This document shows, in pieces, positions 4,392-58,184 of a stretch of DNA of 62,953 nt. Position numbers and translations under genes: made by a program. The stretch's first letter is position 1, and each line of letters starts with the position of its first letter. The DNA is from Candidatus Pacearchaeota archaeon (GTDB lineage Archaea > Nanobdellota > Nanobdellia > Pacearchaeales > GW2011-AR1), in NCBI GenBank assembly GCA_017609085.1, contig JAFCEO010000001.1, forward strand, positions 1-62,953, written 5' to 3'. Under the pieces are notes generated by a model. The model ran no database searches. It had not been told where the DNA came from and saw only the letters and a list, made by a program, of their open reading frames with translations.

Positions 4392-4847
4392 TTAACTCAC
4401 AGAGGAATTATTTTTTCTTATCCAATCATAAATTGCAATGTTTCCAGCAACAGCCGCATTTAAACATTCAACGCCTCCATACTGGGGGATATACATCTTA
4501 GAAATAGATCTATCTAAAATTTTTTGAGGAATACCCGATCCTTCATTCCCCATAACTAACATTGTATTTTTGGAGTGTTCATATTCAAAAATATTTCTAG
4601 AATCTTTTCCTATCTCAACAGAAACTATATTATAATTATTTTCTCTACAATACTTGATGAACTCGTCAGAAGTTCTCATTTTAACAACTTTAATTTTAGA
4701 ATGCGCCCCTGTTGCAGCCCCCCTATTCTATTTTTTCTTACCAACAATAATTATCTCCTTTAGGTTTGCGGCACTCGCTGTTCTCACTAAACCCCCAATA
4801 TTTGTTTCGTTCTCAAAATTCATTACAGCTACAGCAAGATTATTCAT
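4392..4847 (-). pseudogene. SpoU/TrmH-family RNA 2'-O-methyltransferase interrupted by one in-frame TAG
   Basis: ATG at 4847 gives MNNLAVAVMNFENETNIGGLVRTASAANLKEIIIVGKKK-TAG(4730-4728)-NRGAATGAHSKIKVVK, continuing in the same frame into track ORF 4392-4679. SpoU motifs LVMGNEGSGIP and IPQYGGVECLNAAVAG are present. Confidence 0.7.
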
Positions 4848-5342: not shown

Positions 5343-6346
5343 ATGTTAATAAAACCAAATAAATTACAGAAAGGAGATATTATTGCAATAATTTCACCTT
5401 CGGCAGGATTGGGAAAACGATATCCTCATAGAATTGACAATGCTATTAAATTTCTAGAGTCTCAAGGATATAAAGTAAAAGAGTTCCCATCTACTAGAAA
5501 AAGTAGTGGTTGGGAATCTGCTCCTGCAGAAGAACGGGCAAAAGATATAATGGGTGCTTTTCTTGATAAAGAAGTAAAAGCAATAATTTCATCTATCGGT
5601 GGAACAGTAGCAATACAAACTTTAAAATATTTAGATTTTGAAAAAATAAAAGAAAATCCTAAAATATTTTGTGGATATTCTGATATTTCTAATTTACATT
5701 ATGCATTTCTTACACAAGCAAATTTGATAACATTTTATGGACCCTGTGCAATGACCCAGTTTGGAGAGTATCCAAAACCATTAAGTTATACTCTCGAATA
5801 TTTCAATAAAGCAGTAACATCTGAAAAACCAATAGGTAAAATTATTCCATCTAATGGAGTAAAAAATTGGATTTAACAAGGCCCAGGAAGTTAAAGAAAA
5901 ATAAAGGATTTGAATGGTTGAGAAAAGGAAAAGCAGAAGGAGAGATTATTGGAGGATGCTTGACTTCTATTGTTCATCTTCCTGGAACTAAATACTGGCC
6001 GGATTATAAAGGTAAAATTTTATTTTTAGAGTTACCTGAAGGCCAAAAATTTGATCAGGGAGAACCTCTCCCTTATGTTGATTGGTATCTGGAACAATTA
6101 AATATTTTAGGAGTTTTTAATCAAATTAAGGGTTTAATTTTTGGTAGACCATTTAAATATAGCGAAGATGACACGGAAATGCTGAAGAAAAAAATATTAG
6201 AGAGAACCGAAGATTATAATTTTCCAATTTTGTTTGGAGTGGATATTGGACACACAGACCCTATGATTACAATTCCGATAGGAACGAGGGTTATGATTAA
6301 TTCTGAAACAAACATTTTTGAATTTTTAGAAAGGGGGGTAAGTTAA
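5343..6346 (+). pseudogene. S66 serine peptidase (MccF / LD-carboxypeptidase LdcA family), split by a frameshift in an A6 run
   Basis: Track ORFs 5343-5876 and 5867-6346 are the N and C halves of one S66 protein. The nucleophile motif CGYSDISNLH is in the first half and the His motif DIGHTDP in the second. The shift lies at A6 5861-5866. Confidence 0.75.
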
Positions 6347-7263
6347 TAATTATTTAAATGTGGAGAGATTATTTTATTTTTCTTTATTTCTTTCAAATAA
6401 TGTCTTTTTCCTATGAAGTACCCAATTGTAAAGGATGTTAATTTAGCCACCTGATAGATATACTCAAAAAAATTTATTTTCCCAAATCTTAAAGTAAAAA
6501 GATTTTTCCATAGTGCTAATGGAGAAAATTCCTTCTTGAATAAGTCGGGTCTTTCATATTTAATATGAATAGAAGCTTTTCCAAATTTATTATATCTTTT
6601 TAATTCTCCAATTAAACTTGGATATTTATGATAGACTATCACACTATCATCAAAGGTTATTTTTAATTTGTGTTGTTTAAACCTGTCCATGAGTATTAGA
6701 CTTTCTGCACCTGAAGAATAAAAATGTTTTAAATTATAACCCTCAATTTTAAAGTAGGCCTTCTTTTTGAATACTAAATTTTTGCCATCGGCCTGTTTTT
6801 GCTTATAAAATCTTATTTTATCCCACTCGCTTTCAGATAAAGAAAACCAATCTCTGTTAAAAGGCATAAAGTAGGCTCCCTGGATAACATCTGGAGATCT
6901 GTTCTTTAAAATAGAATGGTATATTCTTATAAGCCAATTCTTTTTTACGGTACAATCAGAGTCTATCAAAGCGACATAGTTATATTTAGCTAATTTGATT
7001 GCTTTATTTCTTACATAACTCAAACCCAATGGTCTCACCCTAATATGGGTAATATATTCTAAATTTAAATCTTTAACCATATTAGCAACTTCTTCACTTG
7101 TAGAATTATCCGCAATGATCACTTCAATTTGTGGATAAAAATTATTTTCTTTGTAGAAAGATTCTATAGATTTATCTATTGATCTTATCGTAGCATCTAA
7201 ATTTTTTGCGTTATTAAAAGATGGAACGATGATGCTCAAAGCAAACTTCTTATTAATTTTCAT
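6343..7263 (-). CDS. Family 2 glycosyltransferase
   Basis: 306 aa. LSIIVPSFNNAKNL N-terminal GT-A motif and DSD (DxD). Its start overlaps the upstream methyltransferase gene. Confidence 0.8.
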   Translation of the reverse strand: MKINKKFALSIIVPSFNNAKNLDATIRSIDKSIESFYKENNFYPQIEVIIADNSTSEEVANMVKDLNLEYITHIRVRPLGLSYVRNKAIKLAKYNYVALIDSDCTVKKNWLIRIYHSILKNRSPDVIQGAYFMPFNRDWFSLSESEWDKIRFYKQKQADGKNLVFKKKAYFKIEGYNLKHFYSSGAESLILMDRFKQHKLKITFDDSVIVYHKYPSLIGELKRYNKFGKASIHIKYERPDLFKKEFSPLALWKNLFTLRFGKINFFEYIYQVAKLTSFTIGYFIGKRHYLKEIKKNKIISPHLNNY

Positions 7264-8092
7264 TTAGAGGTTCAGAGGTATATAATTCAGGATCCTCCCA
7301 TAATTTTCTTTTAGATAAAATAAATATAGTATACCCCATATATGATAAATTATTGCGAAATAGAAACATAAAATTCTTATAAGTCTCTGATAATTTCTCA
7401 TAAGTTTCTTTTTTTAAATTTTGTAAATGCCTTCTCTTAAGGATATTAGCACAAAATTCTGAGATTTTCCTATCTTCTATATAACTGAATTTAAAATCTT
7501 TTGACCAATATATTTCCAATCTCGGTATTAAAAAGAAATCTATCCAATCCTGTTTATATTTTGGGGCAATATTGACTTTAATGGCTTCAGAGACTTTTTT
7601 TATAATCTCCTTTGGGGGCTCTTTTATATAATACATTGGTATGGCGACAATAAATCCATTTTTTTTAGAAACGCGCATGCATTCGTCTAAGGCTCTTTTC
7701 TTATTTTTCACTAAGGAAAAAACATTTCCCACTATAACAACATCAAAAGTTTCTGAATCGAATGGTAAAGAGCTCACATCAGCTTTAATAAATTCTATAT
7801 TATCATAATCTTCTTCACTTGCCCTTCTTTTAGCTTCTTTTAAACTCTCTTCATTTATGTCTATCGAAGTTATTCTACATTTAACCAATCTACTTATCTC
7901 TATTGGTGTAAACCCAGTGCTAGTTCCTATTTCCAAAATCCTACTTTTTTCTGTTAAATGAAGCCTATTAATAACTTCAAACACACTATTCCTCCCTCCC
8001 GGAGGACGATTAGTTTCTTTTACAATTCCAATTATTTGATTGTAATCCATTTTTTCTATATCTTCTACTGTGAAATCTTTAATTCCTTTCAT
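7253..8092 (-). CDS. Class I SAM-dependent methyltransferase
   Basis: 279 aa. Motif I RILEIGTSTGF, acidic motif II SIDIN, motif III DVVIVGNVF. Overlaps both neighbours, so it is translationally coupled. Confidence 0.8.
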   Translation of the reverse strand: MKGIKDFTVEDIEKMDYNQIIGIVKETNRPPGGRNSVFEVINRLHLTEKSRILEIGTSTGFTPIEISRLVKCRITSIDINEESLKEAKRRASEEDYDNIEFIKADVSSLPFDSETFDVVIVGNVFSLVKNKKRALDECMRVSKKNGFIVAIPMYYIKEPPKEIIKKVSEAIKVNIAPKYKQDWIDFFLIPRLEIYWSKDFKFSYIEDRKISEFCANILKRRHLQNLKKETYEKLSETYKNFMFLFRNNLSYMGYTIFILSKRKLWEDPELYTSEPLNEN

Positions 8093-9278
8093 ATTCTCTT
8101 ATTATTTGTTCAAGAGTTGATTCTTCTTGAATAAAAGATCTCCTATTTTGAACTTTTAATCCATGTTCTGTTATTAATATTGTCTTTGGTATACCAATAA
8201 AACGAGACGTTTTAATTTTACTATTAACTCGTGCATTTTTTCTATCATCTACTAAAACATGCATTCCAGCAGATTCCATTTTTTCTTGTAATAAAACTAA
8301 TCTGTTTAGTAGTTCTTGATTAGAGGGATTTTTTGGGATTAGGTAAACATCAAAAGGGGATAATTTTTCAGGCCATACAATCCCTTCTCTATCTCTATTT
8401 TGTTCTATAATTGCATATAATAATCTAGACATACCTATTCCATAAGTAGTTAAATAAGGATAAACTTCTTCATTCGAGTCGTCTCTAAACTTCACGTCTA
8501 ATTTTCTGGCAAAAAAATCATTAAAGACTTTAAACATGGCTATTCCTAACCCTCTTTGTAATCTTATATTTTGTCCACAAACAATACATGTTTCTCTTTT
8601 TTTATCATACCTAGTTACATGATTACCTTCACATACAAATATTCTATGTTGGCCTTTATTTGTCATTAGAAGAAAATTCCCATAATTTCTATCACTAGAC
8701 TCGACATAACGCAAGGTTAAATTTGATTGATTACATAAATCTTTAACTATTTTTTTAAATGAATCTACTTTCTCAATAGCAGAGTCTTTTCTATTGTGAA
8801 AGCTATATGCTTCAAAAACATCAAATTCACTGTTACTAATAAGTCCTCCAGCAGGAGTGTTATAAGAGAAAACTTCTCCAAATTGAAATAGACAAAGAGG
8901 AAGATGTCTTTTGAATAAATTATTTCTAACTAAATCATTTATTGTTTCCTCATTTGTACGAGATAAACAAAAATCTCCAAATTCTAAGGAAAGTCTGTAA
9001 ACACTAGCTACATAAGAATCCAATCTACCAGTTTCTCTCAGGAATCTTGTTGGTTGTATTTTTGGAAGAGAGATCTCCTGAAACCCTTCTTTCAATGCAG
9101 AATCCCTAATTATCTTCTGTAATGAATTAAAAACCCTTCTGCCCATTGGGAGAAGGACATAAAATCTTGAGCCAGAATAATGTACAATCCCCGCTTTTTC
9201 AATTAGTTGACTCGTTTCTAATCTAGATGGATCATGATGTTCTAATATATGTGGTGCATATAAATTTTGAATTTTCAT
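8079..9278 (-). CDS. Class IIa aaRS paralog: bacterial-type ProRS-like without the INS domain and with a degenerate motif 2
   Basis: 399 aa. TSQLIEKAGIVHY..YVLLPMG..L resembles the ProRS N-terminus. Motif 3 reads TYGIGMSRLLYAIIEQ..D.EGIVWP. The C-terminal HGTP-type anticodon-binding domain reads FDVYLIP..VLVDDR. Motif 2 reads FSYNTPAGGLISNSEF where ProRS has FRDE.RPRFG.MRSREF. Confidence 0.75.
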   Translation of the reverse strand: MKIQNLYAPHILEHHDPSRLETSQLIEKAGIVHYSGSRFYVLLPMGRRVFNSLQKIIRDSALKEGFQEISLPKIQPTRFLRETGRLDSYVASVYRLSLEFGDFCLSRTNEETINDLVRNNLFKRHLPLCLFQFGEVFSYNTPAGGLISNSEFDVFEAYSFHNRKDSAIEKVDSFKKIVKDLCNQSNLTLRYVESSDRNYGNFLLMTNKGQHRIFVCEGNHVTRYDKKRETCIVCGQNIRLQRGLGIAMFKVFNDFFARKLDVKFRDDSNEEVYPYLTTYGIGMSRLLYAIIEQNRDREGIVWPEKLSPFDVYLIPKNPSNQELLNRLVLLQEKMESAGMHVLVDDRKNARVNSKIKTSRFIGIPKTILITEHGLKVQNRRSFIQEESTLEQIIREYERN

Positions 9279-9279
9279 C

Positions 9280-10473
9280 TTAAGGTTTCAATCCTTTATC
9301 AACTCTTGGAAATTGAGAGGCACTCCAAATAAACGGCATTTCAAATAGTCCTTGAAGCAACCTTTCCCATCCCAACCCAAATCCAGAAGTTTCAACATAA
9401 TTTGGTGATCTCCTAGTTTGGAGATAAGGCCCATAATCTTCCTTAGGAAGATTAAAAATTCTTGCTTTTTCTTCAAGTTCAGAAATAGAACGTACACGAT
9501 GGCCGCTACCAATAATTTCTCTATATCCCGGCCAAATAAAATCTGTATTATCAGCAACCAAGGAACGTTTTTCTTTACCATCTTCTATCCATCTTTCTTC
9601 TACCCCATCAACACATGCATGATAAAATGGCACTTCTAGTAATGGAAAACATCCTATAGCAACCATACTGCCAAATATATGTGTTAACCTAACTTCTTCC
9701 CATTGTCCAAAATTTTTCATTGTAAATCTCTTATACTTATCTTGTTTAGTATCCTCATAGAGCGTATCCAGCGCTTCTCTAAATGTAATTTTTGGAATGT
9801 TTTTGATGTCAGAAGCAAATTCTTCAAGTTCTTTTACCCTATCTTTAGAAAGAAAAAATGCAATATCTTCTTCATTGTAGGTAAGCAAATCTGTGATAAT
9901 CTTTCCTACCAATCCTAAAGCTATTTTTTCGTTTGTAGGCTGATCTATTTTTCCTTCGTATTCGATATGGTGAAACTCAGAAAGATGAGTCGCATCCGCT
10001 TTTTCTTTTCTGAATGAATTATATATGGAATAGACTTGATCAACACCTTGCTGTATTAGTGCAAGCTCCAAATAAATTTGAGACGATTCCGATAAAAAAA
10101 CAGGTTTTTCTTCTTCAAACCATGTAAGCGTGATTGGGCATGTATCTGAAGTATAGTCTATCGCTTCCTTGCCATATACTGCTCCAGGAGAAGAAATCAT
10201 TCTGGTAGTCAGAGGTAAAGCTGTAAAGAGAGCACCCATATAGTCAAAATAGTCATTAGTGCTTTTATTTATCCGATGATTAATTCTAGCAATATGTGTC
10301 CACATTTCACTGGAATAAAAGTGGGCAATTCTGTTCCTAAATTCTTCTAATGGAATCTTTACAGAAGTAACATCTTTTATCGGTTTGAATATTTTGTTTC
10401 CTTTGTAGGAAATTGTTCCATTCATATTTGCACTGTATGGTCCTAGCATTTTAACTAATAAAACCAAACCCAT
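9280..10473 (-). CDS. Class IIb aaRS paralog: AsnRS/AspRS-like catalytic core lacking the OB anticodon-binding domain
   Basis: 397 aa. Motif 2 SFRKEKADATHLSEFHHIEYEG. AsnRS-like C-terminus EIIGSGHRV..DYGPYLQTRR..ETSGFGLGWERLLQGL..FPR. No N-terminal OB fold. The likely true start is ATG 10449, 24 nt downstream of a TTTATAAA box. Confidence 0.75.
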   Translation of the reverse strand: MGLVLLVKMLGPYSANMNGTISYKGNKIFKPIKDVTSVKIPLEEFRNRIAHFYSSEMWTHIARINHRINKSTNDYFDYMGALFTALPLTTRMISSPGAVYGKEAIDYTSDTCPITLTWFEEEKPVFLSESSQIYLELALIQQGVDQVYSIYNSFRKEKADATHLSEFHHIEYEGKIDQPTNEKIALGLVGKIITDLLTYNEEDIAFFLSKDRVKELEEFASDIKNIPKITFREALDTLYEDTKQDKYKRFTMKNFGQWEEVRLTHIFGSMVAIGCFPLLEVPFYHACVDGVEERWIEDGKEKRSLVADNTDFIWPGYREIIGSGHRVRSISELEEKARIFNLPKEDYGPYLQTRRSPNYVETSGFGLGWERLLQGLFEMPFIWSASQFPRVDKGLKP

Positions 10474-10480
10474 TTATAAA
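10473..10480 (-). promoter_or_regulatory. TATA box candidate for the aaRS-paralog operon
   Basis: The minus strand reads TTTATAAA, 24 nt upstream of ATG 10449. This is the same spacing as at other genes in the window. Confidence 0.4.
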
Positions 10481-10631
10481 GTATTTTGAAATATATCCAT
10501 TTCCTGTTCCAATATCTAATATTTTTTTATTTTGGGAAATCATTCCCACATATTCTAAAAAATCTTCATGTATTTGGTAAATTCTCCATTAGACAATTGG
10601 ATCGAATCACCATCTAGAACATGTGAAACAG

Positions 10632-15531: not shown

Positions 15532-17232
15532 ATGCCTTTAAAAAACGATTTTTTTGATATTAAAGAAAACATTGCGTCACTCCTTTCGGAACATATCTCT
15601 TTAGAGAAGGGGGAAATTAAAAATTTAATAGAGGTTCCTCCCAGTCAAGATTTTGGAGACTATGCGTTTCCTTGTTTTATTCTGAGTAAAATTTTAAAAA
15701 AATCTCCAAAGGAAATCGCTGAAATTCTTGCTTCTAAAATCAAATCAAGTAAGAACATTGAAAAAATTGAAGCAAAAGGTCCTTATGTCAATTTCTTTAT
15801 TAATAGGAAGTTAATGGCAGAAGAGATTTTAAAAATCAATGAGAATTACGGAAGAAAAAAGAAGAAAAAAGAAAAAATTATGGTCGAATTCTCTCAGGCA
15901 AATACACATAAAGCATTTCACATCGGGCACCTTAGGGGAACAAGTTTGGGGGAAAGTATAGCAAGAATTTTGGAATTTTTAGGAAACAAAGTCATTAGAG
16001 TTAATTATCAAGGAGATACTGGAATGCATGTGGCGAAATGGTTGTGGTGTTATTTAAAATATCATAAAAAAGAAAAATTAAAAGAGGATGAGAGATGGAT
16101 AGCCAATATATATGTAGATGCTGTGAGGAGATTGGAAAACGACAAAACAGAAAAACTTCAAAAAGAAGTAGAAGAAATTAATAGAAAACTCGAAAAAAAA
16201 GAAGATAAAGAATTGAATAAATTGTGGGAATGTACACGAAAAATCTCTCTCAAAATGTTTGAAAGAATATATAAAGAACTCGATACCAAATTTGACAAAT
16301 ATTTTTTTGAAAGAGAAGTTGAAAAGAGAGGAAAAGAAATCGCAAAAGAACTTTTAAAGAAGAAAATAGCAAAGATTTCAGAGGGAGCAGAAATTGTAGA
16401 TTTGAAAAAATTCGGACTCGGCGTTTGGATTTTGTTGAGAAAAGATGGTACTGTTCTTTATTCTGCCAAAGATTTAGCGTTAGCAGAAAAAAAATTTACT
16501 GATTTCAAAATTGATAAAAGCATTTATGTTGTTGGAGCAGCTCAAAAACTTCATTTTGAACAGCTTATGAAAACACTCGAAATTATGAAATTCAAAAACT
16601 TAAAGAATATTAAAATTATTCATTTTCAAGAAGTCAGGTTCCCCCATGGCAAAATGTCTTCAAGAACAGGCGAGAATATACTTTATTCAGATTTCAAATC
16701 AGAGTTGATTGATTACGCGAAACAAGAAATTAAAAAGAGACACCCAAATATATTCAAGCCAATTCTTGAAAAAAGAGCGTTAGATATTTTTATATCGGCT
16801 ATAAAATATTCGATGTTAAAACAAGATCCAAATAAAAATATTATTTTTATCAAGGAGGAGGCTTTTAATTTTGAAGGGAATACAGGGCCTTACTTGTTAT
16901 ATAGTTACGCAAGAGCATCTTCCATATTAAAAAAGGCAAAAAAAGTAAAGAAGAAAGTAAAATTCTCTAAATTAACGAATCAAGAGATAGCTTTGATTAA
17001 AAAAATATTTCTATTTCCAGAAATTGTTGAAAAAGCAGGACAATCATTGAACCCAAGTTTAATTGCTAATTACAGTCATGAACTTGCACAATTGTTTAAT
17101 GAATTTTACCATTCCTGTAGAGTTATCGGAGAAAAATCCGAGGAGTTTAGATTAAAACTTGTAGATGCTTTTAGGATCTGCATAAAAAATGCTCTTTATC
17201 TGCTCGGTATTAAAGTTTTAGAAGAGATGTAA
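15532..17232 (+). CDS. argS: Arginyl-tRNA synthetase
   Basis: 566 aa. HIGH-type AFHIGHLRG, degenerate KMSKS GKMSSRTG, C-terminal DALR-type anticodon-binding helices. Confidence 0.95.
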   Translation: MPLKNDFFDIKENIASLLSEHISLEKGEIKNLIEVPPSQDFGDYAFPCFILSKILKKSPKEIAEILASKIKSSKNIEKIEAKGPYVNFFINRKLMAEEILKINENYGRKKKKKEKIMVEFSQANTHKAFHIGHLRGTSLGESIARILEFLGNKVIRVNYQGDTGMHVAKWLWCYLKYHKKEKLKEDERWIANIYVDAVRRLENDKTEKLQKEVEEINRKLEKKEDKELNKLWECTRKISLKMFERIYKELDTKFDKYFFEREVEKRGKEIAKELLKKKIAKISEGAEIVDLKKFGLGVWILLRKDGTVLYSAKDLALAEKKFTDFKIDKSIYVVGAAQKLHFEQLMKTLEIMKFKNLKNIKIIHFQEVRFPHGKMSSRTGENILYSDFKSELIDYAKQEIKKRHPNIFKPILEKRALDIFISAIKYSMLKQDPNKNIIFIKEEAFNFEGNTGPYLLYSYARASSILKKAKKVKKKVKFSKLTNQEIALIKKIFLFPEIVEKAGQSLNPSLIANYSHELAQLFNEFYHSCRVIGEKSEEFRLKLVDAFRICIKNALYLLGIKVLEEM

Positions 17233-18305: not shown

Positions 18306-21158
18306 TCATATTTTATTAAAAAGAATAATGATTTTTTTATCTTTTATTTTTTCTTCTACTTTGTTTTTGTATTTCTCTTCGTGTTTAATATCTTGAGCAA
18401 TTGTTATTTCAGAAGAATTCGTCCTTTCTTTTATAAAATCTTTTTGAGGTTCTATTATTCTTTTTAAGTTTTCATCAACAATTAAAGCAAGCTTGATTTT
18501 GTCTTTCTTAATAAATCCTTCTTTTTTACGAGCAGCTTGAACTTTTCTTGAAATTTCGCGGGCAAAGCCTTCTGACTCTAACTCAGGAGTAATTTTCGTA
18601 TCAAGTTCTACGTTCAATTTTCCTTTTTTAATTTCGAGTTTTTTCACATTTAATTGATTAGCAATTATCTTCTGTAATTCATTGCTTAAAGATTTATCCG
18701 TGCTGATTATAGCTTTTTTTAAGGGCCATCTTAATCCAATTTTAGCTTTATCTCTTTCAGAAAGACCTTTTTCAATAATATTTAAAACGACTAAAAAATC
18801 TTCTTCCAACTTTTTGTCAATTAATCTACTTTCTGGTTTTGGAAATTCAGATAAATGAATCGACTCCTCCTTTACAATTTTAGTTTTTCTCAATTCTTGC
18901 CAAATTTGTTCTGTTACGAATGGAGTTACAGGAGCGAGAAGTTTTAACAAACCAAGCCTAATTTTGTTTAGAACTTCATAAGTTTCTTCTTGCCTTTCTC
19001 TTATTATTTTAATATAAGTCTTTGACAAATCAACAATCAAAAAATTTTCAATTAATTGAACGACTTCTGAAAATTTAAATTTATTATAATTTTCTATAAC
19101 TTGTTTAACCAATGAATTAAACTTACTAACTATCCATTTATCCTCTACTTTAAGATTCGATTTTTTATTTTTTAATTGATCAATAAAATTATTAACATTA
19201 ATTAAAATTCTGAATGTCTTTTCGATTTCCTTAAACTCATTTTCGTTAAAAGCAAAATCTTCTCCTTTTGAAATTTTTGCAAAATAATATCTTAAATAAT
19301 CTCGCGAGTACTTTTTAATTATCTCGCCTGGAAAGATAATATTCCCTCTCGATTTTGACATTTTTCTTTTTCCTAAGTCCAAGACCATTCCATGAACAAC
19401 AATATTTCTAAATGGTTTTTTGTCAAATTTTATTTCAGAAAGAATTAATTGGGAGTTCCACCATCCTCTAATTTGGTCTTTTCCTTCGATATTTAAGTTG
19501 GCTGGCCAGAATTTCTTGAATTGTTTTTCATTTAGAACAGCCCAACTGCTTACACCCGAATCAAACCAAACATCCAATACTTCCTCGACCCTTTTCATTT
19601 TTCCACCACATTTACATTTTAGAAAAACATTATCAATATCAGGTTTATGAATTTCATTTATTTTTTTCTTCGATAATTTTTCTAACTCCTTAACACTTCC
19701 GACGACAATTTTATTGTCGCATTTTTCACAAATCCAGATGGGTAGGGGAGTTCCCCAGTATCTTTTTCTAGAAACAGGCCAATCAGAAATCCCCTCTAAC
19801 CAAGCTTTCATTCTTAATTTCATATAATTAGGAAGCCAGTTTGTTTCTGAATTTTCTTTTAATAACTTGTCGTGAATATCTGAAATCTTAAGGAACCATT
19901 GTGGTAAAGAAATCATTAATAATGGCGATTTACATCTCCAACAAAGAGGATAATCATGAGTGTAATTTAATTTATAGACTAGCTTATTTTCTTTTTCTAA
20001 ATCTTCAATAATTTCTTCGTCAACAACTCTTGCTTTTTTATTTGCATATTTTCCAGCGTCCTCTGTTAAAAGCCCATTGATGCCTACAGGGGAAGGCATG
20101 TCTAGACCATATTCTTTTCCCACCTCATAATCTTCTTTTCCATGACCTGGGGCGCAATGAACCAATCCTGTTCCTTCTTCTAAATTGACGTATCTTTTAG
20201 ATAACACTATTTTATAAGCATTCTTTACTTTTAAATTTAAATTTTTAAAAAGAGGATTTTCATATTCCCATCCTTCCATTTTTTTTCCTTTAAAAATTCT
20301 TTTGAGAGTATAACCTATTCCTAGCTCCCCCATAATTTTCGGAATAAGTTCTTTTGCTATAATCCATTTTTCCCTGTTTGAAAGCTCAATTTCTGCATAA
20401 TCAAAATCAGGATTAACCATCACTCCTGTATTTCCTGGTAAAGTCCAAGGGGTCGTTGTCCAAATTATTAAATAAGTATTTCCCTTCTTCTTCAGAGGAA
20501 ATTTTACAAAAATAGAAGTATCTTCTTGATTTGCATATTCAATTTCATTATAAGCAACAGCTGTCTCGCATCTAGGACAAACATGAATGGGGTATTTTCC
20601 TAAATACAAAAGTCCTTTTTTATCTGCAACTTTAAAACAATCCCAAATTTTTTCAATATACTCTTTATCTAATGTCAAATAAGGATTTTCGAAATCCATC
20701 CAAACACCCAAATTTTCAAATTCGTCATTCATAACTCCAATAAATCTTGTAGCAAATTCTTTGCATTTATTGATAAATCTCTTTACTCCATATTTTTCAA
20801 TATCTTTTTTTGATTTACTGCCTATTTCTTTTTCTATTTGAAACTCGATCGGAACTCCGTGAGTATCATAACCTGCTTTATCAAAAACATCTTTGCCTTG
20901 AAGCCTTTGGCTTCTCATGGCAATATCTTTAAGGACTTTATTTAAAGCTGTACCCATATGGATATGCCCTGTCGCATAAGGAGGCCCGTCCATCATATAG
21001 AATGGATCTCCTTTAGCATTTTTTCTTTTGCTTTTTTCATAAATTTTATTTTTCTTCCAGAACTTTAGAATTTCTCTTTCATGAGAATTTCTGTCCCGTT
21101 CAGATAATAATTTCTGAAAATCTGGTTGTTTTTTTGAATTGTTTTTATTTTCTTGCAT
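18306..21158 (-). CDS. ileS: Isoleucyl-tRNA synthetase
   Basis: 950 aa. PPYATGHIHMGTA (HIGH), KMSKSRGN, CP1 editing region TTTPWTLPGN, and Cys pairs CPRC, CWRC, CEKC. Confidence 0.95.
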   Translation of the reverse strand: MQENKNNSKKQPDFQKLLSERDRNSHEREILKFWKKNKIYEKSKRKNAKGDPFYMMDGPPYATGHIHMGTALNKVLKDIAMRSQRLQGKDVFDKAGYDTHGVPIEFQIEKEIGSKSKKDIEKYGVKRFINKCKEFATRFIGVMNDEFENLGVWMDFENPYLTLDKEYIEKIWDCFKVADKKGLLYLGKYPIHVCPRCETAVAYNEIEYANQEDTSIFVKFPLKKKGNTYLIIWTTTPWTLPGNTGVMVNPDFDYAEIELSNREKWIIAKELIPKIMGELGIGYTLKRIFKGKKMEGWEYENPLFKNLNLKVKNAYKIVLSKRYVNLEEGTGLVHCAPGHGKEDYEVGKEYGLDMPSPVGINGLLTEDAGKYANKKARVVDEEIIEDLEKENKLVYKLNYTHDYPLCWRCKSPLLMISLPQWFLKISDIHDKLLKENSETNWLPNYMKLRMKAWLEGISDWPVSRKRYWGTPLPIWICEKCDNKIVVGSVKELEKLSKKKINEIHKPDIDNVFLKCKCGGKMKRVEEVLDVWFDSGVSSWAVLNEKQFKKFWPANLNIEGKDQIRGWWNSQLILSEIKFDKKPFRNIVVHGMVLDLGKRKMSKSRGNIIFPGEIIKKYSRDYLRYYFAKISKGEDFAFNENEFKEIEKTFRILINVNNFIDQLKNKKSNLKVEDKWIVSKFNSLVKQVIENYNKFKFSEVVQLIENFLIVDLSKTYIKIIRERQEETYEVLNKIRLGLLKLLAPVTPFVTEQIWQELRKTKIVKEESIHLSEFPKPESRLIDKKLEEDFLVVLNIIEKGLSERDKAKIGLRWPLKKAIISTDKSLSNELQKIIANQLNVKKLEIKKGKLNVELDTKITPELESEGFAREISRKVQAARKKEGFIKKDKIKLALIVDENLKRIIEPQKDFIKERTNSSEITIAQDIKHEEKYKNKVEEKIKDKKIIILFNKI

Positions 21159-33940: not shown

Positions 33941-34025
33941 CGCCCGCGCCGGGATTCGAACCCGGATTGTAGCCGTTCTGCCAATGGTCGACAGGGCTAA
34001 GTGCTAGCCATTACACCACGCGAGC
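33941..34025 (-). tRNA. tRNA-Asp (anticodon GUC) with a 13-nt intron
   Basis: The minus strand folds as GCTCGCG/TG/GTGT-AATGGCTA-GCAC/T/TAGCC-CTGTCG[ACCATTGGCAGAA]C-GGCTA/CAAT/CCGGG-TTCGAAT-CCCGG/CGCGGGC/G. Anticodon at 33992-33990. Confidence 0.75.
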
Positions 34026-35417: not shown

Positions 35418-35575
35418 TCCCACCACCAGGATTCGAACCTGGGATCTTCCGGGTACAGCATGGCTTTTAGGGTTTCATATTCTCCCGTGGGAAAAATCCA
35501 CCTTAGACAATGAGGATTTACTTCAATCCTAAAAGTTGTCTACAGCCGGACGCTCTACCACTGAGCTATGGTGGG
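35418..35575 (-). tRNA. tRNA-Tyr (anticodon GUA) with an 86-nt intron
   Basis: The minus strand folds as CCCACCA/TA/GCTC-AGTGGTA-GAGC/G/TCCGG-CTGTAGA..[86 nt]..CCGGA/AGATC/CCAGG-TTCGAAT-CCTGG/TGGTGGG/A. It has the C1:G72 pair typical of archaeal tRNA-Tyr. Anticodon at 35543-35541. Confidence 0.85.
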
Positions 35576-43349: not shown

Positions 43350-43462
43350 GCGCGAGTAGTATAGTGGCAGTACGCAACGTTGCCACATCTCCTTCACTCT
43401 AGCCTATATAAAAGGAGAAATGTAAAAACGTTGTAACCCGGGTTCGAATCCCGGCTCGCGCA
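43350..43462 (+). tRNA. tRNA-Gly (anticodon GCC) with a 42-nt intron
   Basis: Folds as GCGCGAG/TA/GTAT-AGTGGCA-GTAC/G/CAACG-TTGCCA[42 nt]A-CGTTG/TAAC/CCGGG-TTCGAAT-CCCGG/CTCGCGC/A. Anticodon at 43382-43384, intron at 43386-43427. Confidence 0.8.
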
Positions 43463-50700: not shown

Positions 50701-51783
50701 ATGGAAAAAGAGAAGTTTATTGATCCTTGGGGAAGTGAATTGCCTGAAGATTATGCTAAGCTTATTAGGGAATTTGGTTTAGAGAAGTTCAACGTTTCTG
50801 ATTTCCCCAATCCTAATAAACTAATGAGGAGAGGTTTAGTTTTTGCTGGCAGGAGTTTGGGGATAATTAGCAGAGCAATAAAAGAGAAAAAACCATTTTA
50901 TGCTTTGACAGGAATAATGCCCTCTTCTGAAAAAATTCACTTAGGAAATAAGTGTGTAATTGATAATCTTGTCTACTTTCAAAAGCAGGGTGCTAAAACC
51001 TATATGTTGGTTGCAGATTTAGAAGCCGCTGCAACTCGTGGCATCAGTTTAGAAGAATCAAGAAAAAGAGCCCTTAACTATCATATTCCAGCTTATATTG
51101 CTCTCGGATTAAATCCTAGGAAAACAAAATTCTATTTCCAATCCTCGAATAAAGAAGTAACAAGTTTAGCTTTTTCTCTAAGCGGTAAAGCCACATTAAA
51201 CGAATATAGGGCGATATATGGTTCAACTTCTCCAGCGAGAATAATGTCTTCTGTCTTGCAAGTAGCTGATATTCTTTATCCACAACTTGAGGAAGAAATG
51301 CCTGGGATTATTCCAACAGGAATAGATCAGGATCCTCATATAAGGTTAACTCGCGATATAGCTAAAAGAGCTAAAGGATATAAGTTCTTTTTGCCTTCTG
51401 CAATATATCATAAGTACACTCCAGCTTTAGATGGCAGTTTAAAAATGTCAAAATCAAAAGGGAATTTTATTGAGCTTCCCGAATCTTCCGAAAGTATAAA
51501 GAAAAAAATTATGAAAGCTGTAACTGGGGGAAGAAAAACAGCAGAAGAACAAAGAAAACTCGGAGGACAGCCTGAAAAAGATATGATTTACGAATTATTT
51601 AAACAGCATCTTATAGAGGATGACAAAGAACTTTTACAAAGAATTAAGGATAATAAAGCAGGAAAAATTTTGAGTAGAGAGGATAAAGAATATGCCATAG
51701 AGCTTCTTAATAAATTTATGGACGATTTTAAAAGAAAATTTGAAAAAGCAAAAAATCTTGTGCCTAAGTTAGATATTAGTTAA
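50701..51783 (+). CDS. trpS: Tryptophanyl-tRNA synthetase (archaeal type)
   Basis: 360 aa. DPWGSELPEDYAKLIREFGLEKF N-terminus typical of archaeal TrpRS, HIGH-like SEKIHLGN, and KMSKSKGN. Confidence 0.9.
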   Translation: MEKEKFIDPWGSELPEDYAKLIREFGLEKFNVSDFPNPNKLMRRGLVFAGRSLGIISRAIKEKKPFYALTGIMPSSEKIHLGNKCVIDNLVYFQKQGAKTYMLVADLEAAATRGISLEESRKRALNYHIPAYIALGLNPRKTKFYFQSSNKEVTSLAFSLSGKATLNEYRAIYGSTSPARIMSSVLQVADILYPQLEEEMPGIIPTGIDQDPHIRLTRDIAKRAKGYKFFLPSAIYHKYTPALDGSLKMSKSKGNFIELPESSESIKKKIMKAVTGGRKTAEEQRKLGGQPEKDMIYELFKQHLIEDDKELLQRIKDNKAGKILSREDKEYAIELLNKFMDDFKRKFEKAKNLVPKLDIS

Positions 51784-51934: not shown

Positions 51935-53827
51935 ATGAAACTATTAAGTTTACACTGCGACTATATAAAATTTAAACCCATTAAGAGGGCCATTAAAGAA
52001 CCAGAAAATTTAAGTGAGGCAGAGAAAAAAAGGAAAAAAATAGAAGAGGTTTTAGTTGTTTTTACAGCAGTTGAGAAACAAGATGAGGAGGATCAAGAAA
52101 TAATAAAAAAATATATGGATAATATTAAAGATATAGCTGAACAAGTTAAAGTCAAAAATATCGTCCTTTATCCTTATGCTCATCTTTCTTCTTCTCTTGC
52201 AAGACCAGATTTCGCTCAAAAAGTGATGCAAGAAGCAGAAAAAGAATTAAAAAAAGACAAGAAATTTGAGGTTGAAAGAGCACCTTTTGGATATTACAAA
52301 GAGTTTGAGTTAAAATGTAAAGGACATCCTCTTTCTGAACTTAGCAGAGAAATTACAGCAGAATCAACTAAGAAAAAAGAAGGGAAAAAAAGAAAGAAAG
52401 GTTCTGAATTTTGCAAGTTTATCCTTATAGATAGTAATGGCAAAGAGTATATCGTTAATGAAAAAAATTGGAAAAAATCTCCTATATGGAAAAACAAGGG
52501 AGAAGAATATGATAGATTAAAACAATTTGTTAAAAATGAATTGGAAAAAGGAGAAGAAAAAGATAAGCCAAAACATGTTTATTACATGAGGGAATTGGAA
52601 TTAGTTGATTACTGCCAGGAGTCTGATTTAGGACATTTTAAATGGTACCCGAAAGGCATGCTAATAAAACAATTAATATTGGATTTTCAAGAAAAATTAG
52701 CAAGAGACTATGGGGCATTTAAAATACAAAATCCTCTTCTTTACAGACTGAGTGTTCCTTCTATAAGGGATCTTTTAGGAGAATTCCATGAAAAAGACTA
52801 CTCTTGGAAAGAATCTAATGACTCTCTCATTTTAAGATTTGCATCTGACCCCGGCGCATTTCCTTTTATGCAAAAAGTTAATTTTTCTTATAAACAGATG
52901 CCGATAAAAGAATACGAAGAGGCAATCTGTTTTAGAAAAGAGAGAAGTGGAGAGTTGAAAGGTTTGAGGAGAGTCAGAAATTTTTTGATGACAGACTTGC
53001 ACGCTTTTTGTAAAGATGAAGAGCAACAAAAAGAAGAATTTGAGAAATTGTGTTATATTTGTAAAGAATTAATGGACAATATTATAGCTAAAGGAAGATG
53101 GGTTCTTGGATGGGAGGGAACTGTCGACTTCTATAACAAAAATAAAAAATGGTTAATTAAAATTATAACACGGATGCAGGTTCCTTCTTTTTTTAAATTA
53201 ATGAAAGAAAGAAGCCATTATTATGATATGAAAAACGAATTTCAGAGTATAGAAAGTGACGGAGCCAATACTCAAATTTCTACAGTTCAATTGGATTCTA
53301 TAAATGGAAAGAGGTTTAATATATGTTATATGGATAAAGATAATAAAAAAAAGCCATGTCAGATTATCCATTGCTCGACTTTTGGAAGTATAGAAAGAAC
53401 ACTTGCAGCAATATTGGAAAATGCGGCTATAGATGAGCGGGAAGGAAGAAAACCGTTTCTTCCATATTGGCTTTCTCCAACACAGGTAAGAATTTTGCCC
53501 CTTTCAGAAAAATATGTTCAAGAAGCCGAACTACTTGCTAAAGACTTAAATGAAAAACAAAATATAAGGGCAGACGTCGATGATAGAGACCTTCCTCTTT
53601 CAAAAAAAGTTTCAGATGCAGAAAAAGAATGGATACATTATATTGTTACGATAGGTAAAAAAGAGTTAGAAAATCAGATCTTGAGTGTAAGAATAAGAAA
53701 AACAGGAAAGGTCGAGCAAATGAAGCCCCATAATTTTCGCGATATGCTTAAAAAAGAACAAGCTGAAATGCCATGGCGACCTTTACCTCTTCCTGTTTTA
53801 TTAAGTAAAAGACCTAAATTTGTGTAA
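51935..53827 (+). CDS. thrS: Threonyl-tRNA synthetase, archaeal type with the N-terminal DTD-like editing domain
   Basis: 630 aa. MKLLSLHCDYIKFKP editing-domain start, motif 2 FRKERSGELKGLRRVRNFLMTDLHAF, and anticodon-binding SPTQVRILPL. Confidence 0.95.
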   Translation: MKLLSLHCDYIKFKPIKRAIKEPENLSEAEKKRKKIEEVLVVFTAVEKQDEEDQEIIKKYMDNIKDIAEQVKVKNIVLYPYAHLSSSLARPDFAQKVMQEAEKELKKDKKFEVERAPFGYYKEFELKCKGHPLSELSREITAESTKKKEGKKRKKGSEFCKFILIDSNGKEYIVNEKNWKKSPIWKNKGEEYDRLKQFVKNELEKGEEKDKPKHVYYMRELELVDYCQESDLGHFKWYPKGMLIKQLILDFQEKLARDYGAFKIQNPLLYRLSVPSIRDLLGEFHEKDYSWKESNDSLILRFASDPGAFPFMQKVNFSYKQMPIKEYEEAICFRKERSGELKGLRRVRNFLMTDLHAFCKDEEQQKEEFEKLCYICKELMDNIIAKGRWVLGWEGTVDFYNKNKKWLIKIITRMQVPSFFKLMKERSHYYDMKNEFQSIESDGANTQISTVQLDSINGKRFNICYMDKDNKKKPCQIIHCSTFGSIERTLAAILENAAIDEREGRKPFLPYWLSPTQVRILPLSEKYVQEAELLAKDLNEKQNIRADVDDRDLPLSKKVSDAEKEWIHYIVTIGKKELENQILSVRIRKTGKVEQMKPHNFRDMLKKEQAEMPWRPLPLPVLLSKRPKFV

Positions 53828-56912: not shown

Positions 56913-58184
56913 TTATTCACCTTCAAATTTTACAATAGAAAAAACTCTCCATTTGCTTAGTTTTTCTCTTCCTTTTAAATCAAGGAGCTCTATAATAAAA
57001 GCTATTTCTTCTATTTCTCCACCCAATTTTTCAACTAATCTTGCAGCAGCCTGAGCAGTTCCTCCAGTGGCTATAAGGTCATCTACTAATAAAACTTTCT
57101 GCCCCAATTGAATGGCATCTTTGTGAATCTCAACAGCATCTTTCCCATACTCAAGCTCGTATTCTTCTTTAATTGTTTCATAAGGAAGTTTGCCGAGCTT
57201 TCTTATAGGGACGAATCCTACTCCTAATCTGTTTGCTAACATTCCTCCAATAATGAATCCCCTACTCTCTACTCCTGCGACTATATCTATCTTCCTATCC
57301 TTATATCTTTTTTCAAGAATATCAATAACCTTTTTTAACCCTTCCTTGTCCTTTAAGAGGGTTGTTATATCTCGAAACATTATTCCTTCTTTTGGCCAAT
57401 TCGGAATTGTTCTTATTTTATCTTTAATAAATTCTTCATCTTTGTCGGCTATTTTCGGAATAACTTTCAAAAGGAGAGTTTTAACCTTATCTGCATTTTC
57501 TTTCATTCTTTGCTCTATTATTTCCCAAGTTACAGCTTCTTCATCTTGCTTCCAACAATCATAATCAGTCGACATAGCGATAGTTTGATATTCTAAACCT
57601 AGTTCATTGGCTAGAATTACCTCAGGACAAGTAGACATATTAATTATATCTGCTCCTAAATTTTTGAACATAAAACTTTCTGCTCTTGTGCTAAATCTTG
57701 GGCCTTCAATTGTGATAACAGTAACATCTTTATTATATTCAAATCCAAGTTCCTCGCATGTTTGGCATAAAATTTCCCTTAACTCTTTTGAGAAAGGCTC
57801 TGCCATTGGCGTGTGGATAACTTCTTCTTTATCGTAAAAACTCATTGCCCTTTGTTTAGTAAAATCGATAAATTGGTTAGGAAAAACTAAATTTCCTGGC
57901 TTTATTTCTTCTTTAAGTGAGCCTACGGCAGTTGTTGCTAAAATATGACTTACTCCTAATAATTTTAAGGCGTAAATATTGGCTCTATAATTTACTTGAC
58001 TCGGAGGGATAGTATGATTTTTTCCGTGTCTTGATAAAATACAAACTTCGATTCCATTAATTTTTCCACAAGTTATTAGAGAAGATGGTTTCCCATAAGG
58101 AGTCTCTATTTCTTTTTCTTCATAATTTTCAAGAAGTTTAGGATCATCTAATCCTGAGCCACCAATTATTCCTATTTTTATCAT
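56913..58184 (-). CDS. Fusion protein: 5'-methylthioadenosine/purine nucleoside phosphorylase (N) plus adenine phosphoribosyltransferase (C)
   Basis: 423 aa. The N-terminal about 250 aa carry [24 protein letters not shown] and INMSTCPE (MTAP). The C-terminal about 170 aa carry [22 protein letters not shown] and [13 protein letters not shown] (APRT). Confidence 0.85.

Follow-up and report, generated by a model that had tools for sequence, protein, structure and literature searches.

A five-gene archaeal locus that is likely to be a minimal agrocin-84-type cassette

The closest described counterpart of the locus examined here is the agrocin 84 (agn) gene cluster on plasmid pAgK84 of Rhizobium rhizogenes K84, for which a 2006 study by Kim and colleagues is reportedly the source. 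Agrocin 84 is a bacterial antibiotic of the "Trojan-horse" kind, with a tRNA synthetase as its target. Within that cluster AgnA is a truncated asparaginyl-tRNA synthetase (AsnRS) proposed to make the phosphoramidate, and AgnB2, an agrocin-resistant leucyl-tRNA synthetase (LeuRS), gives immunity; in a 2021 review, agrocin relatives were reported only from Ensifer and some Actinobacteria (PMC8323819). The aspartamidyl-nucleotide warhead of microcin C has four known disarmers, MccF (S66), MccH (HIT), MccG (S51) and MccE2 (GNAT) (PMC9239234), and its phosphoramidate is tailored by MccD, which is dependent on S-adenosylmethionine (SAM), and the decarboxylase MccE (PMC12596934). Here we describe a five-gene locus on contig JAFCEO010000001.1 (assembly GCA_017609085.1) of a Candidatus Pacearchaeota archaeon. 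The window that we analysed is this whole contig of 62,953 nt, and we consider it likely that the locus is a minimal archaeal cassette of the agrocin 84 type that makes a non-hydrolysable aminoacyl-adenylate mimic.

An earlier note on this DNA had described four tightly packed minus-strand open reading frames (ORFs) as one operon. The ORF listing with translations gives the same picture, with ORFs at 10473-9280, 9278-8079, 8092-7253 and 7263-6343, a gap of 1 nt between ORF1 and ORF2 and overlaps of 14 nt between ORF2 and ORF3 and of 11 nt between ORF3 and ORF4. Searches with Pfam and NCBIfam profiles recovered the domains that the note had assigned to each of the four. The operon is thus a real unit, but it is not complete with four genes, because a convergent S66 peptidase gene at 5343-6346 had been overlooked. 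The locus comprises the following features:

10473..10480, minus strand: TTTATAAA box, a putative archaeal TATA element of a leaderless operon transcript, read directly from the sequence
9280..10449, minus strand: ORF1, 389 aa counted from M9, a truncated AgnA-type AsnRS catalytic core without the anticodon-binding OB domain
8079..9278, minus strand: ORF2, 399 aa, a degenerate paralogue of bacterial-type prolyl-tRNA synthetase (ProRS) and AgnC1 homologue, with core and HGTP anticodon-binding domain and no editing domain
7253..8092, minus strand: ORF3, 279 aa, a class I SAM-dependent methyltransferase, AgnB1 orthologue
6343..7263, minus strand: ORF4, 306 aa, a GT2 glycosyltransferase, accessory gene of the window's sub-clade
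5343..6346, plus strand: S66 serine peptidase of the MccF/AgnC5 type, convergent with the operon and read as two ORFs (5343-5876 and 5867-6346) through a frameshift

A tblastn search with ORF1 against plasmids matched agnA (annotated as "Agrocin84-synthetase") on pAgK84, where the annotated order is agnA, a SAM methyltransferase (AgnB1), agnB2 (agrocin-resistant LeuRS), agnC1 and, further along, agnC5 ("MccF-like protein"). BLASTP aligns ORF1 with AgnA at 28% identity (E = 7e-26; E = 1.4e-40 with the family hidden Markov model, HMM) and ORF3 with AgnB1 at 43% identity across 263 aa (E = 7e-77). The latter match is specific, because the methyltransferase family HMM scores AgnB1 at 287 bits and the other agn methyltransferase, AgnC3, at 37 bits. 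The two halves of the S66 protein are 37% identical to AgnC5, to which the family HMM gives 314 bits. For ORF2, a search of the ORF2-type (ProRS-like) family HMM against AgnC1 gave no match, and hhalign of that family against AgnC1 as a single sequence gave a probability of 1%. Homology emerged only once an AgnC1-family profile had been built, the two family profiles aligning over 303 columns with a probability of 95.2% (E = 2.5e-8), which agrees with the published report that AgnC1 is remotely ProRS-like (PMC8323819). Among the homologous loci that we numbered L001 to L093, two (L026 and L077) have the order ORF1-type, methyltransferase, LeuRS-like, ProRS-like and S66, mirroring agnA, agnB1, agnB2, agnC1 and agnC5. 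The earlier note had listed aminoacyl-nucleotide antibiotic clusters among its precedents. It did not recognise this gene combination as a described pathway, but the combination has been described, as ORF1, ORF2, ORF3 and the S66 protein correspond to AgnA, AgnC1, AgnB1 and AgnC5.

ORF2 has few close relatives, and those for which a contig could be assigned all have the five-gene arrangement. The order ORF1, ORF2, methyltransferase and GT2 with a convergent and intact S66 gene recurs in three loci that differ from the window and from each other in sequence, L001, L002 and L003/L004 (ORF2 identity 45-66%), and the arrangement is therefore not due to chance. Relatives of ORF1 itself, about 378 aa long and with 64-70% identity (one at 84%), number in the hundreds, and in their neighbourhoods a methyltransferase, an S66 gene and a class II aminoacyl-tRNA synthetase (aaRS)-like gene occur in varying order. 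We scanned the GTDB species representatives for the ORF1 family and called and clustered the ORFs of all 80 loci returned. Among these representatives, the family occurs in the DPANN groups Woese-, Nano-, Micr-, Parv- and Aenigmatarchaeota and, with 43-49% identity, in the Candidate Phyla Radiation (CPR)/Patescibacteria. It was also found in the cultured haloarchaea Natrinema gari, N. altunense and Haloarcula regularis (49-56% identity), and the core of ORF1, methyltransferase and S66 is present on Bacillales plasmids as well. In the 47 non-redundant loci with enough flanking sequence, counting up to five genes from the ORF1 homologue, S66 was present in 37, an ORF3-type methyltransferase in 35 and at least one aaRS-like partner in 43. 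Synteny in related genomes, which the earlier note had proposed as a test, is thus seen both for the five-gene order and, in most of the 47 loci, for the core. The operon is a conserved functional unit, and it most likely builds or handles a small molecule derived from an amino acid.

Several of these loci differ in further gene content. In Natrinema gari JCM 14663 (L059) and N. altunense AJ2 (L060), a methyltransferase, an S66 gene and a full-length LeuRS lie beside the ORF1 homologue, together with ABC ATPase-like and permease-like ORFs judged by eye from their translations; the Haloarcula regularis locus is L072. The plasmids of Peribacillus (L092, NZ_CP068052.1) and Exiguobacterium (L093, NZ_CP053558.1) carry a methyltransferase and an ORF1-like "asparagine synthetase A" (plus S66) with an AlaRS-related protein, a full AlaRS, an ATP-grasp enzyme and either an MFS transporter or a glycosyltransferase, and their gene content suggests that they belong to this cassette family as members of an alanyl type. 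Automatic pipelines label ORF1-family proteins as asparagine--tRNA ligase or asparagine synthetase A. Our literature searches found no paper in which clusters of the agrocin type are connected with archaea, DPANN or CPR, and searches on combinations of aaRS-like, LD-carboxypeptidase and methyltransferase genes found no description of these loci.

The Pfam content of ORF1 is the class IIb catalytic domain PF00152 alone. Its alignment is limited to positions 115-449 of the AsnRS profile and no PF01336 domain was found, indicating that the anticodon-binding OB domain is absent. The scores of ORF1 against the AsnRS models (NF003037, 124.6 bits with a cut-off of 414; TIGR00457, 107.7 bits with a cut-off of 342.6) and against the best AsnA model (NF005055, 84.8 bits with a cut-off of 389) are all far too low for membership. 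The motifs FRKE, THLSEFHHIEYE, GFGLGWERLL and QFPR are nevertheless present and invariant across 26 homologues in the family alignment, as are the motif-2 arginine R155, the motif-3 arginine R371, E171 and R326. The last two align with Glu225 and Arg368 of T. thermophilus AsnRS, which we take to contact the asparagine side chain. An AlphaFold2 model of ORF1 (pLDDT 76) gave AsnRS structures as its top Foldseek matches. ORF1 thus appears to retain the adenylation site of a class II enzyme in intact form, along with an amino-acid pocket of the AsnRS type. The possibility that it is a split or unusual housekeeping AsnRS was rejected on the basis of the sub-cut-off scores, the absent OB domain and the occurrence of the family in haloarchaea and on plasmids.

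All ORF1 homologues begin at MLGPY, which corresponds to M9 of the longer ORF, and the true start of ORF1 is therefore probably the ATG at 10449 and not 10473. From this start the TTTATAAA box lies 24-31 nt upstream, the distance expected in archaea where the mRNA is leaderless, and it is probably a TATA box. The box that the earlier note had seen upstream of the operon is present, but the start that it gave for ORF1 is not the one to which the homologues point. The N-terminal extension that follows (MLGPY...LPLTTRMISSPG) is distinct and conserved. Directly upstream of ORF1 and overlapping the TATA box is a 30-aa ORF (MISQNKKILDIGTGNGYISKYFINGFGFIS, 10451-10543, minus strand) with the sequence ILDIGTGNG, which resembles motif I of class I methyltransferases; it may be the remnant of a lost methyltransferase gene.

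Our 50%-identity representative library includes a natural fusion of 667 aa, P0182, of an ORF1-type domain (5-370) and an ORF3-type methyltransferase (392-666). This fusion ties the two kinds of protein together and predicts that ORF1 and ORF3 share an interface, and the tightest partner of ORF1 is the methyltransferase. Other fusions were seen in P0286, P0294 and P0297 (1298-1569 aa), which join carnitine-acyltransferase, Asparaginase_2 (isoaspartyl peptidase/asparaginase) and HIT domains to a C-terminal AgnA/ORF1-like tRNA-synt_2 domain, and in P0285 (859 aa), which has Asparaginase_2 and tRNA-synt_2 only. Their domain content would tie the AgnA/ORF1-like domain to asparagine or isoaspartate and phosphoramidase chemistry, and seems to fit an asparagine-derived phosphoramidate, although it falls short of proof.

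ORF2 combines a class IIa core (PF00587) with the HGTP anticodon domain (PF03129) and has no INS/YbaK editing domain. Its best match is to bacterial-type ProRS, at 202.8 bits where the cut-off of the model (NF006625) is 558. The FRDE of motif 2 has become FSYN, a change of arginine to serine, and the loop arginines are also lost; the motif-3 arginine is kept, as is TNEE, the counterpart of the proline-binding THEE (T-x-E-E) of ProRS. Because the motif-2 arginine is lost, ORF2 is predicted to be one that cannot work as a ProRS. The earlier note took neither of the aaRS-like genes for a housekeeping enzyme, a view that agrees with these sub-cut-off scores and with the losses of the OB domain and the motif-2 arginine. 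ORF3 is a class I SAM methyltransferase (Pfam Methyltransf_11/25/31). ORF4 belongs to GT2 (PF00535, E = 1.3e-19), and its gene is limited to loci of the window type (the window, L001/L028, L002 and L003/L004); the related Exiguobacterium plasmid cluster has a different glycosyltransferase.

In the S66 gene the Pfam N- and C-terminal S66 domains sit on separate ORF halves. The frameshift adjoins a run of six A residues at about 5858-5876. Compared with the L001 protein, which is intact, the halves show 77% and 73% identity and lack some 6 aa at the junction, and their translations contain the motifs GYSD and GHTD. Against structures, the intact homologue scores 162-223 bits with the MccF family and 48-93 bits with murein LD-carboxypeptidases, from which we place the protein in the MccF family and not in the LdcA family. 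An assignment as a murein LD-carboxypeptidase was rejected on this far better match to MccF structures, and murein is not expected in archaeal hosts, which is a second argument against it. Seven loci (L039, L044, L045, L050, L052, L056 and L057) have no S66 gene in the mapped stretch. In its stead they carry a protein from cluster c8, about 325 aa long and without a match in Pfam or NCBIfam, often with a HIT protein, and the c8 protein may be a functional replacement of the S66 amidase. A SpoU-family RNA methylase gene near the window's S66 gene is apparently split as well (4392-4679 and 4728-4847, both minus strand; the C-terminal part matches PF00588 and the N-terminal ORF was assigned by eye), making it a second broken gene less than 2 kb from the S66 frameshift. 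The proximity of the two suggests sequence errors or decay.

In contrast to the constancy of ORF1, the aaRS-like partner varied greatly among loci. NCBIfam typing and comparison with the plasmid loci identified partners that are ProRS-like, LysRS-like with an OB fold, AspRS-like, LeuRS-like without the CP1 editing region and AlaRS-related. The partner in cluster c9 has only a weak HisRS match in Pfam, the one in cluster c24 is linked to AlaRS-related proteins solely through the plasmid loci, and PDB sequence searches with these two families gave no matches. Nearly all of the partners score well under equivalog cut-offs. Across loci with ProRS-, LysRS-, LeuRS-, HisRS- and AlaRS-like partners, proteins of the ORF1 family keep an identity of 63-74% with the window's ORF1, and the latter is 68-71% identical to its relatives where the partner is LysRS- or LeuRS-like and 63-67% identical where it is of the ORF2 type. 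These results indicate that ORF1 identity does not track partner type, and the step carried out by ORF1 therefore appears to be independent of the partner's amino acid.

Bona fide extra copies of ProRS, LeuRS, AlaRS or GlyRS adjoin the cassette in L009, L061, L068, L059, L064, L092 and L093. A bona fide ProRS stands beside the degenerate copy in L009 (557 vs 226 bits), L061 (495 vs 152) and L068 (526 vs 208), a full LeuRS (1043 bits) beside the Natrinema cassette and a GlyRS (605 bits) beside that of L064. Such copies parallel AgnB2, the resistant LeuRS, and so follow the logic of resistance genes. There is no bona fide extra aaRS inside the window cassette, where ORF2 is degenerate. Accessory genes in sister loci encode HIT, S51 peptidase, RimJ/RimL-like GNAT, pyridoxal phosphate (PLP)-dependent decarboxylase of the Orn/DAP type, ATP-grasp and RlmN/Cfr-like adenine methylase proteins. 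As companions of the core, the families other than ATP-grasp match immunity and tailoring enzymes of microcin C, and the context therefore points to chemistry on aminoacyl-nucleotides. The RlmN/Cfr-like enzyme, a radical SAM protein of about 298 aa from the adenine C2/C8 methylase family, occurs in L024, L025, L033, L070, L073 and L082 beside or near a full-length class IIb partner, which is LysRS-like in both loci typed (L024 and L073); the adenine of the product may be what this enzyme modifies.

If the locus is an agrocin-84-type cassette, its product would be a nucleotide with an N-acyl phosphoramidate group and would act as an aaRS inhibitor, and ORF1, the methyltransferase and the S66 amidase would be the constant machinery that puts the amide (P-N) nitrogen on the nucleotide phosphate. 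ORF1 would adenylate asparagine, and an MccB-like succinimide intermediate would capture a second adenosine monophosphate (AMP) on nitrogen to give aspartamidyl-adenylate. The MccF-type peptidase would then cleave aspartate from the N-P nucleotide, leaving adenosine 5'-phosphoramidate, to which ORF2 would deliver an acyl (probably prolyl) group, possibly from Pro-tRNA by a reversed transfer step. GT2 would attach a sugar that serves uptake or self-protection, much as agrocin 84 has its glucose-phosphate carrier, and judging from the encoded proteins the product here is probably prolyl-like and sugar-decorated. As a step-by-step account of how a prolyl-adenylate mimic is made, this route is doubtful. 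The broader proposal is that DPANN and CPR, lineages of ultra-small and host-dependent cells, widely carry a three-part modular platform (AgnA-like core, AgnB1-like methyltransferase and MccF-like amidase) that installs the phosphoramidate nitrogen and swaps degenerate aaRS modules (Pro, Lys, Asp, Leu, His and Ala) to direct toxins against the tRNA synthetases of hosts or competitors, the window holding a glycosylated prolyl-type member; to this we give slightly less than an even chance.

A number of points weigh against an agrocin-type function. No product is known from any archaeal or CPR locus of the cassette, and both the agrocin 84 pathway and the route of P-N installation were unsolved as of 2025 (PMC8323819, PMC12596934). 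The identity of 28% between ORF1 and AgnA is low. The window cassette has no exporter, no resistant ProRS copy and none of the agn genes for the 3'-deoxy sugar or the pentanamide. ORF2 lacks the motif-2 arginine used in class II adenylate chemistry and may be a non-catalytic binding protein, and because AgnC1 is derived from ProRS although agrocin 84 mimics Leu-AMP, the ancestry of the partner need not reveal the acyl group. The universal conservation of the methyltransferase is not accounted for by agrocin 84, on which a methyl group is not obvious. The frameshift in S66 may point to a defective or recently inactivated cassette here, or to a sequencing or assembly error. Moreover, so common and conserved an antibiotic cassette (65-70% ORF1 identity in many metagenome-assembled genomes) would be unusual in genome-reduced symbionts, and the role of the product could be physiological rather than antagonistic.

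This last point leads to a reading in which the product is not a toxin but a modified nucleotide or amino-acid conjugate that serves as a signal, storage form or cofactor. Such a product would explain why the cassette is frequent in host-dependent DPANN and CPR, and it would suit the wide distribution, the high conservation of ORF1 and the many loci, the window included, that have neither exporter nor resistant aaRS. However, every characterised relative of the core (agn and the mcc immunity enzymes) concerns adenylate mimics that poison aaRSs, and the extra bona fide aaRS beside many cassettes fits self-resistance, so that we regard this reading as improbable. We also consider it unlikely, if by a hair less so, that the locus is an immunity or detoxification island, which makes no compound of its own and acts on imported aminoacyl-nucleotide toxins through MccF-type cleavage and decoy or sequestering aaRS-like proteins. 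S66, HIT, S51 and GNAT enzymes are documented in microcin C immunity, many of them stand-alone (PMC9239234), they recur in the sister loci, and ORF2, which lacks the key catalytic arginine, could be a decoy. Yet ORF1 retains all adenylation residues, the AgnB1-type methyltransferase has been given a biosynthetic role in agn (PMC8323819), and the fusions of ORF1 with the methyltransferase suggest synthesis rather than hydrolysis.

The two remaining alternatives depend on how ORF1 and ORF2 relate to each other and to translation. The earlier note had offered as one attractive model a two-piece aminoacyl ligase in which ORF1 provides catalysis and ORF2 RNA or ligand binding, loading a glycan, lipid or other acceptor that is then methylated and glycosylated. 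The adjacent and overlapping genes, the presence of an anticodon-binding domain in ORF2 but not in ORF1 and the presence of GT2 are all in keeping with it, but we find it quite improbable. The aaRS-like partners of the ORF1 family are numerous and unrelated, class I included, and do not co-diverge with it, and such switching beside a steady ORF1 argues against two halves of one enzyme. GT2 is restricted to one small sub-clade and all core genes map onto the agn cluster. A glycan or lipid acceptor is not indicated by the companions: the conserved methyltransferase and MccF-type amidase point to nucleotide chemistry, and S66/MccF, HIT/MccH, S51/MccG and GNAT/MccE are aminoacyl-nucleotide families. 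Very improbable, finally, is a role in primary metabolism or translation, with ORF1 an odd AsnRS or an AsnA/AS-AR asparagine synthetase, ORF2 an odd ProRS and their linkage fortuitous. The names given to the ORF1 family by pipelines would support it, as would the high conservation of the family in DPANN and its intact Asn/Asp pocket. Nevertheless, the scores are far under the equivalog cut-offs (AsnRS 125 vs 414, AsnA 85 vs 389, ProRS 203 vs 558), ORF1 has no OB domain and ORF2 no motif-2 arginine, the distribution over DPANN, CPR, haloarchaea and plasmids is patchy, synteny with the methyltransferase and S66 is conserved, and a bona fide ProRS adjoins the degenerate copy in L009, L061 and L068. 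We therefore retain the agrocin-84-type cassette as the preferred reading.

Elsewhere, the window is archaeal, with a GC content of about 30% and genes for a thermosome subunit, aIF-2 and Elp3. The immediate neighbours of the cassette are unrelated to it (a Cys-rich protein, Trm5/TYW2 and the SpoU fragments). The earlier note had called argS, ileS, trpS and thrS intact, and all four score above their NCBIfam equivalog cut-offs:

15532-17232: ArgRS, above cut-off
18306-21158: IleRS, above cut-off
50701-51783: TrpRS, above cut-off
51935-53827: ThrRS, above cut-off

Three tRNA genes (33941-34025, 35418-35575 and 43350-43462; 85-158 nt) were detected by Rfam and missed by ARAGORN, their extra length being most simply explained by introns. 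A 423-aa fusion at 56913-58184 (minus strand) joins a methylthioadenosine phosphorylase (residues 1-251) to an adenine phosphoribosyltransferase (248-422).

The core of the cassette is that of the agrocin 84 system. What is new here is the archaeal, CPR and haloarchaeal distribution of this core, its compact five-gene form, the interchangeable aaRS-derived modules and the GT2-bearing variant of ProRS type. Because four agn genes form a portable core over archaea, CPR, haloarchaea and Bacillales plasmids, they are likely to carry the core chemistry, and this recurrence makes it probable that AgnB1 and AgnC5 should be moved from tailoring and immunity to core roles. If the platform is real, it would be, to our knowledge, the first antibiotic class predicted for DPANN archaea, and it would show which minimal machinery forms the P-N bond of agrocin 84. 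Natural aaRS inhibitors that form a family and whose specificity can be swapped are predicted by this pattern, which would also suggest that symbionts with reduced genomes spend resources on attacking translation chemically or on manipulating it. Five-gene systems are simple enough for reconstitution, and the cultured Natrinema and Haloarcula strains with related loci offer direct experimental access in tractable hosts. Hundreds of ORF1-type genes are at present mislabelled as asparagine--tRNA ligase or asparagine synthetase A.

Among the known systems, AS-AR and AsnA share with ORF1 the free-standing AsnRS-like core without an OB domain, and NCBI pipelines name ORF1-like plasmid genes accordingly. 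ORF1 differs from them in its score (85 bits against a cut-off of 389), in its N-terminal extension and in its setting within a cassette of methyltransferase, S66 and aaRS-like genes, which is not a feature of AsnA. The cassette shares MccF (S66) with microcin C, and sister loci add MccH-like HIT, MccG-like S51 and MccE2-like GNAT proteins; there are also sister loci with a PLP decarboxylase like the N-terminal part of MccE and a SAM-fold enzyme like MccD. The P-N nitrogen of microcin C comes from asparagine, and the pocket of ORF1 is of the AsnRS type. In microcin C biosynthesis, however, the adenylating enzyme is not a class II aaRS core as it is here. Pfam scans found no ThiF/E1-like (MccB) domain in any of the five cassette genes, and the 180-nt spacer upstream of ORF1, read by eye for a microcin-C-type precursor peptide (MccA) without a systematic search, holds only the 30-aa ORF, which ends in Ser.

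The likeness to agrocin 84 extends to four homologues, AgnA, AgnB1 immediately downstream of it, AgnC1 and AgnC5. It extends also to the resistant aaRS (AgnB2), which lies inside agn as bona fide copies lie in several related DPANN, halophile and Bacillales loci, and to the sugar-based carrier moiety of agrocin, with which the GT2 gene may be compared. The window cassette differs from agn in its archaeal host and in having 5 genes instead of 17. A resistant aaRS of the AgnB2 type and an AgnG exporter are absent, as are the AgnC2-C7 and AgnD-F genes beyond the AgnC5 counterpart, and the genes that agn has for the 3'-deoxyarabinose, for the dihydroxy-methylpentanamide and for the N6 glucose-phosphate are likewise missing. 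ORF2 also keeps T-x-E-E (TNEE) where AgnC1 has RPDAAL, so that the acyl group probably differs, being prolyl-like and not leucyl-like. Phosmidosine from Streptomyces, which we take to be a prolyl-phosphoramidate of 8-oxoadenosine with an O-methylated phosphate, and thus a prolyl-adenylate mimic with a P-N bond, offers a likeness that is chemical only, as we know of no published phosmidosine gene cluster. A ProRS-derived module, a methyltransferase and an AgnA-like enzyme, such as are combined in the window, could plausibly make a product of this kind.

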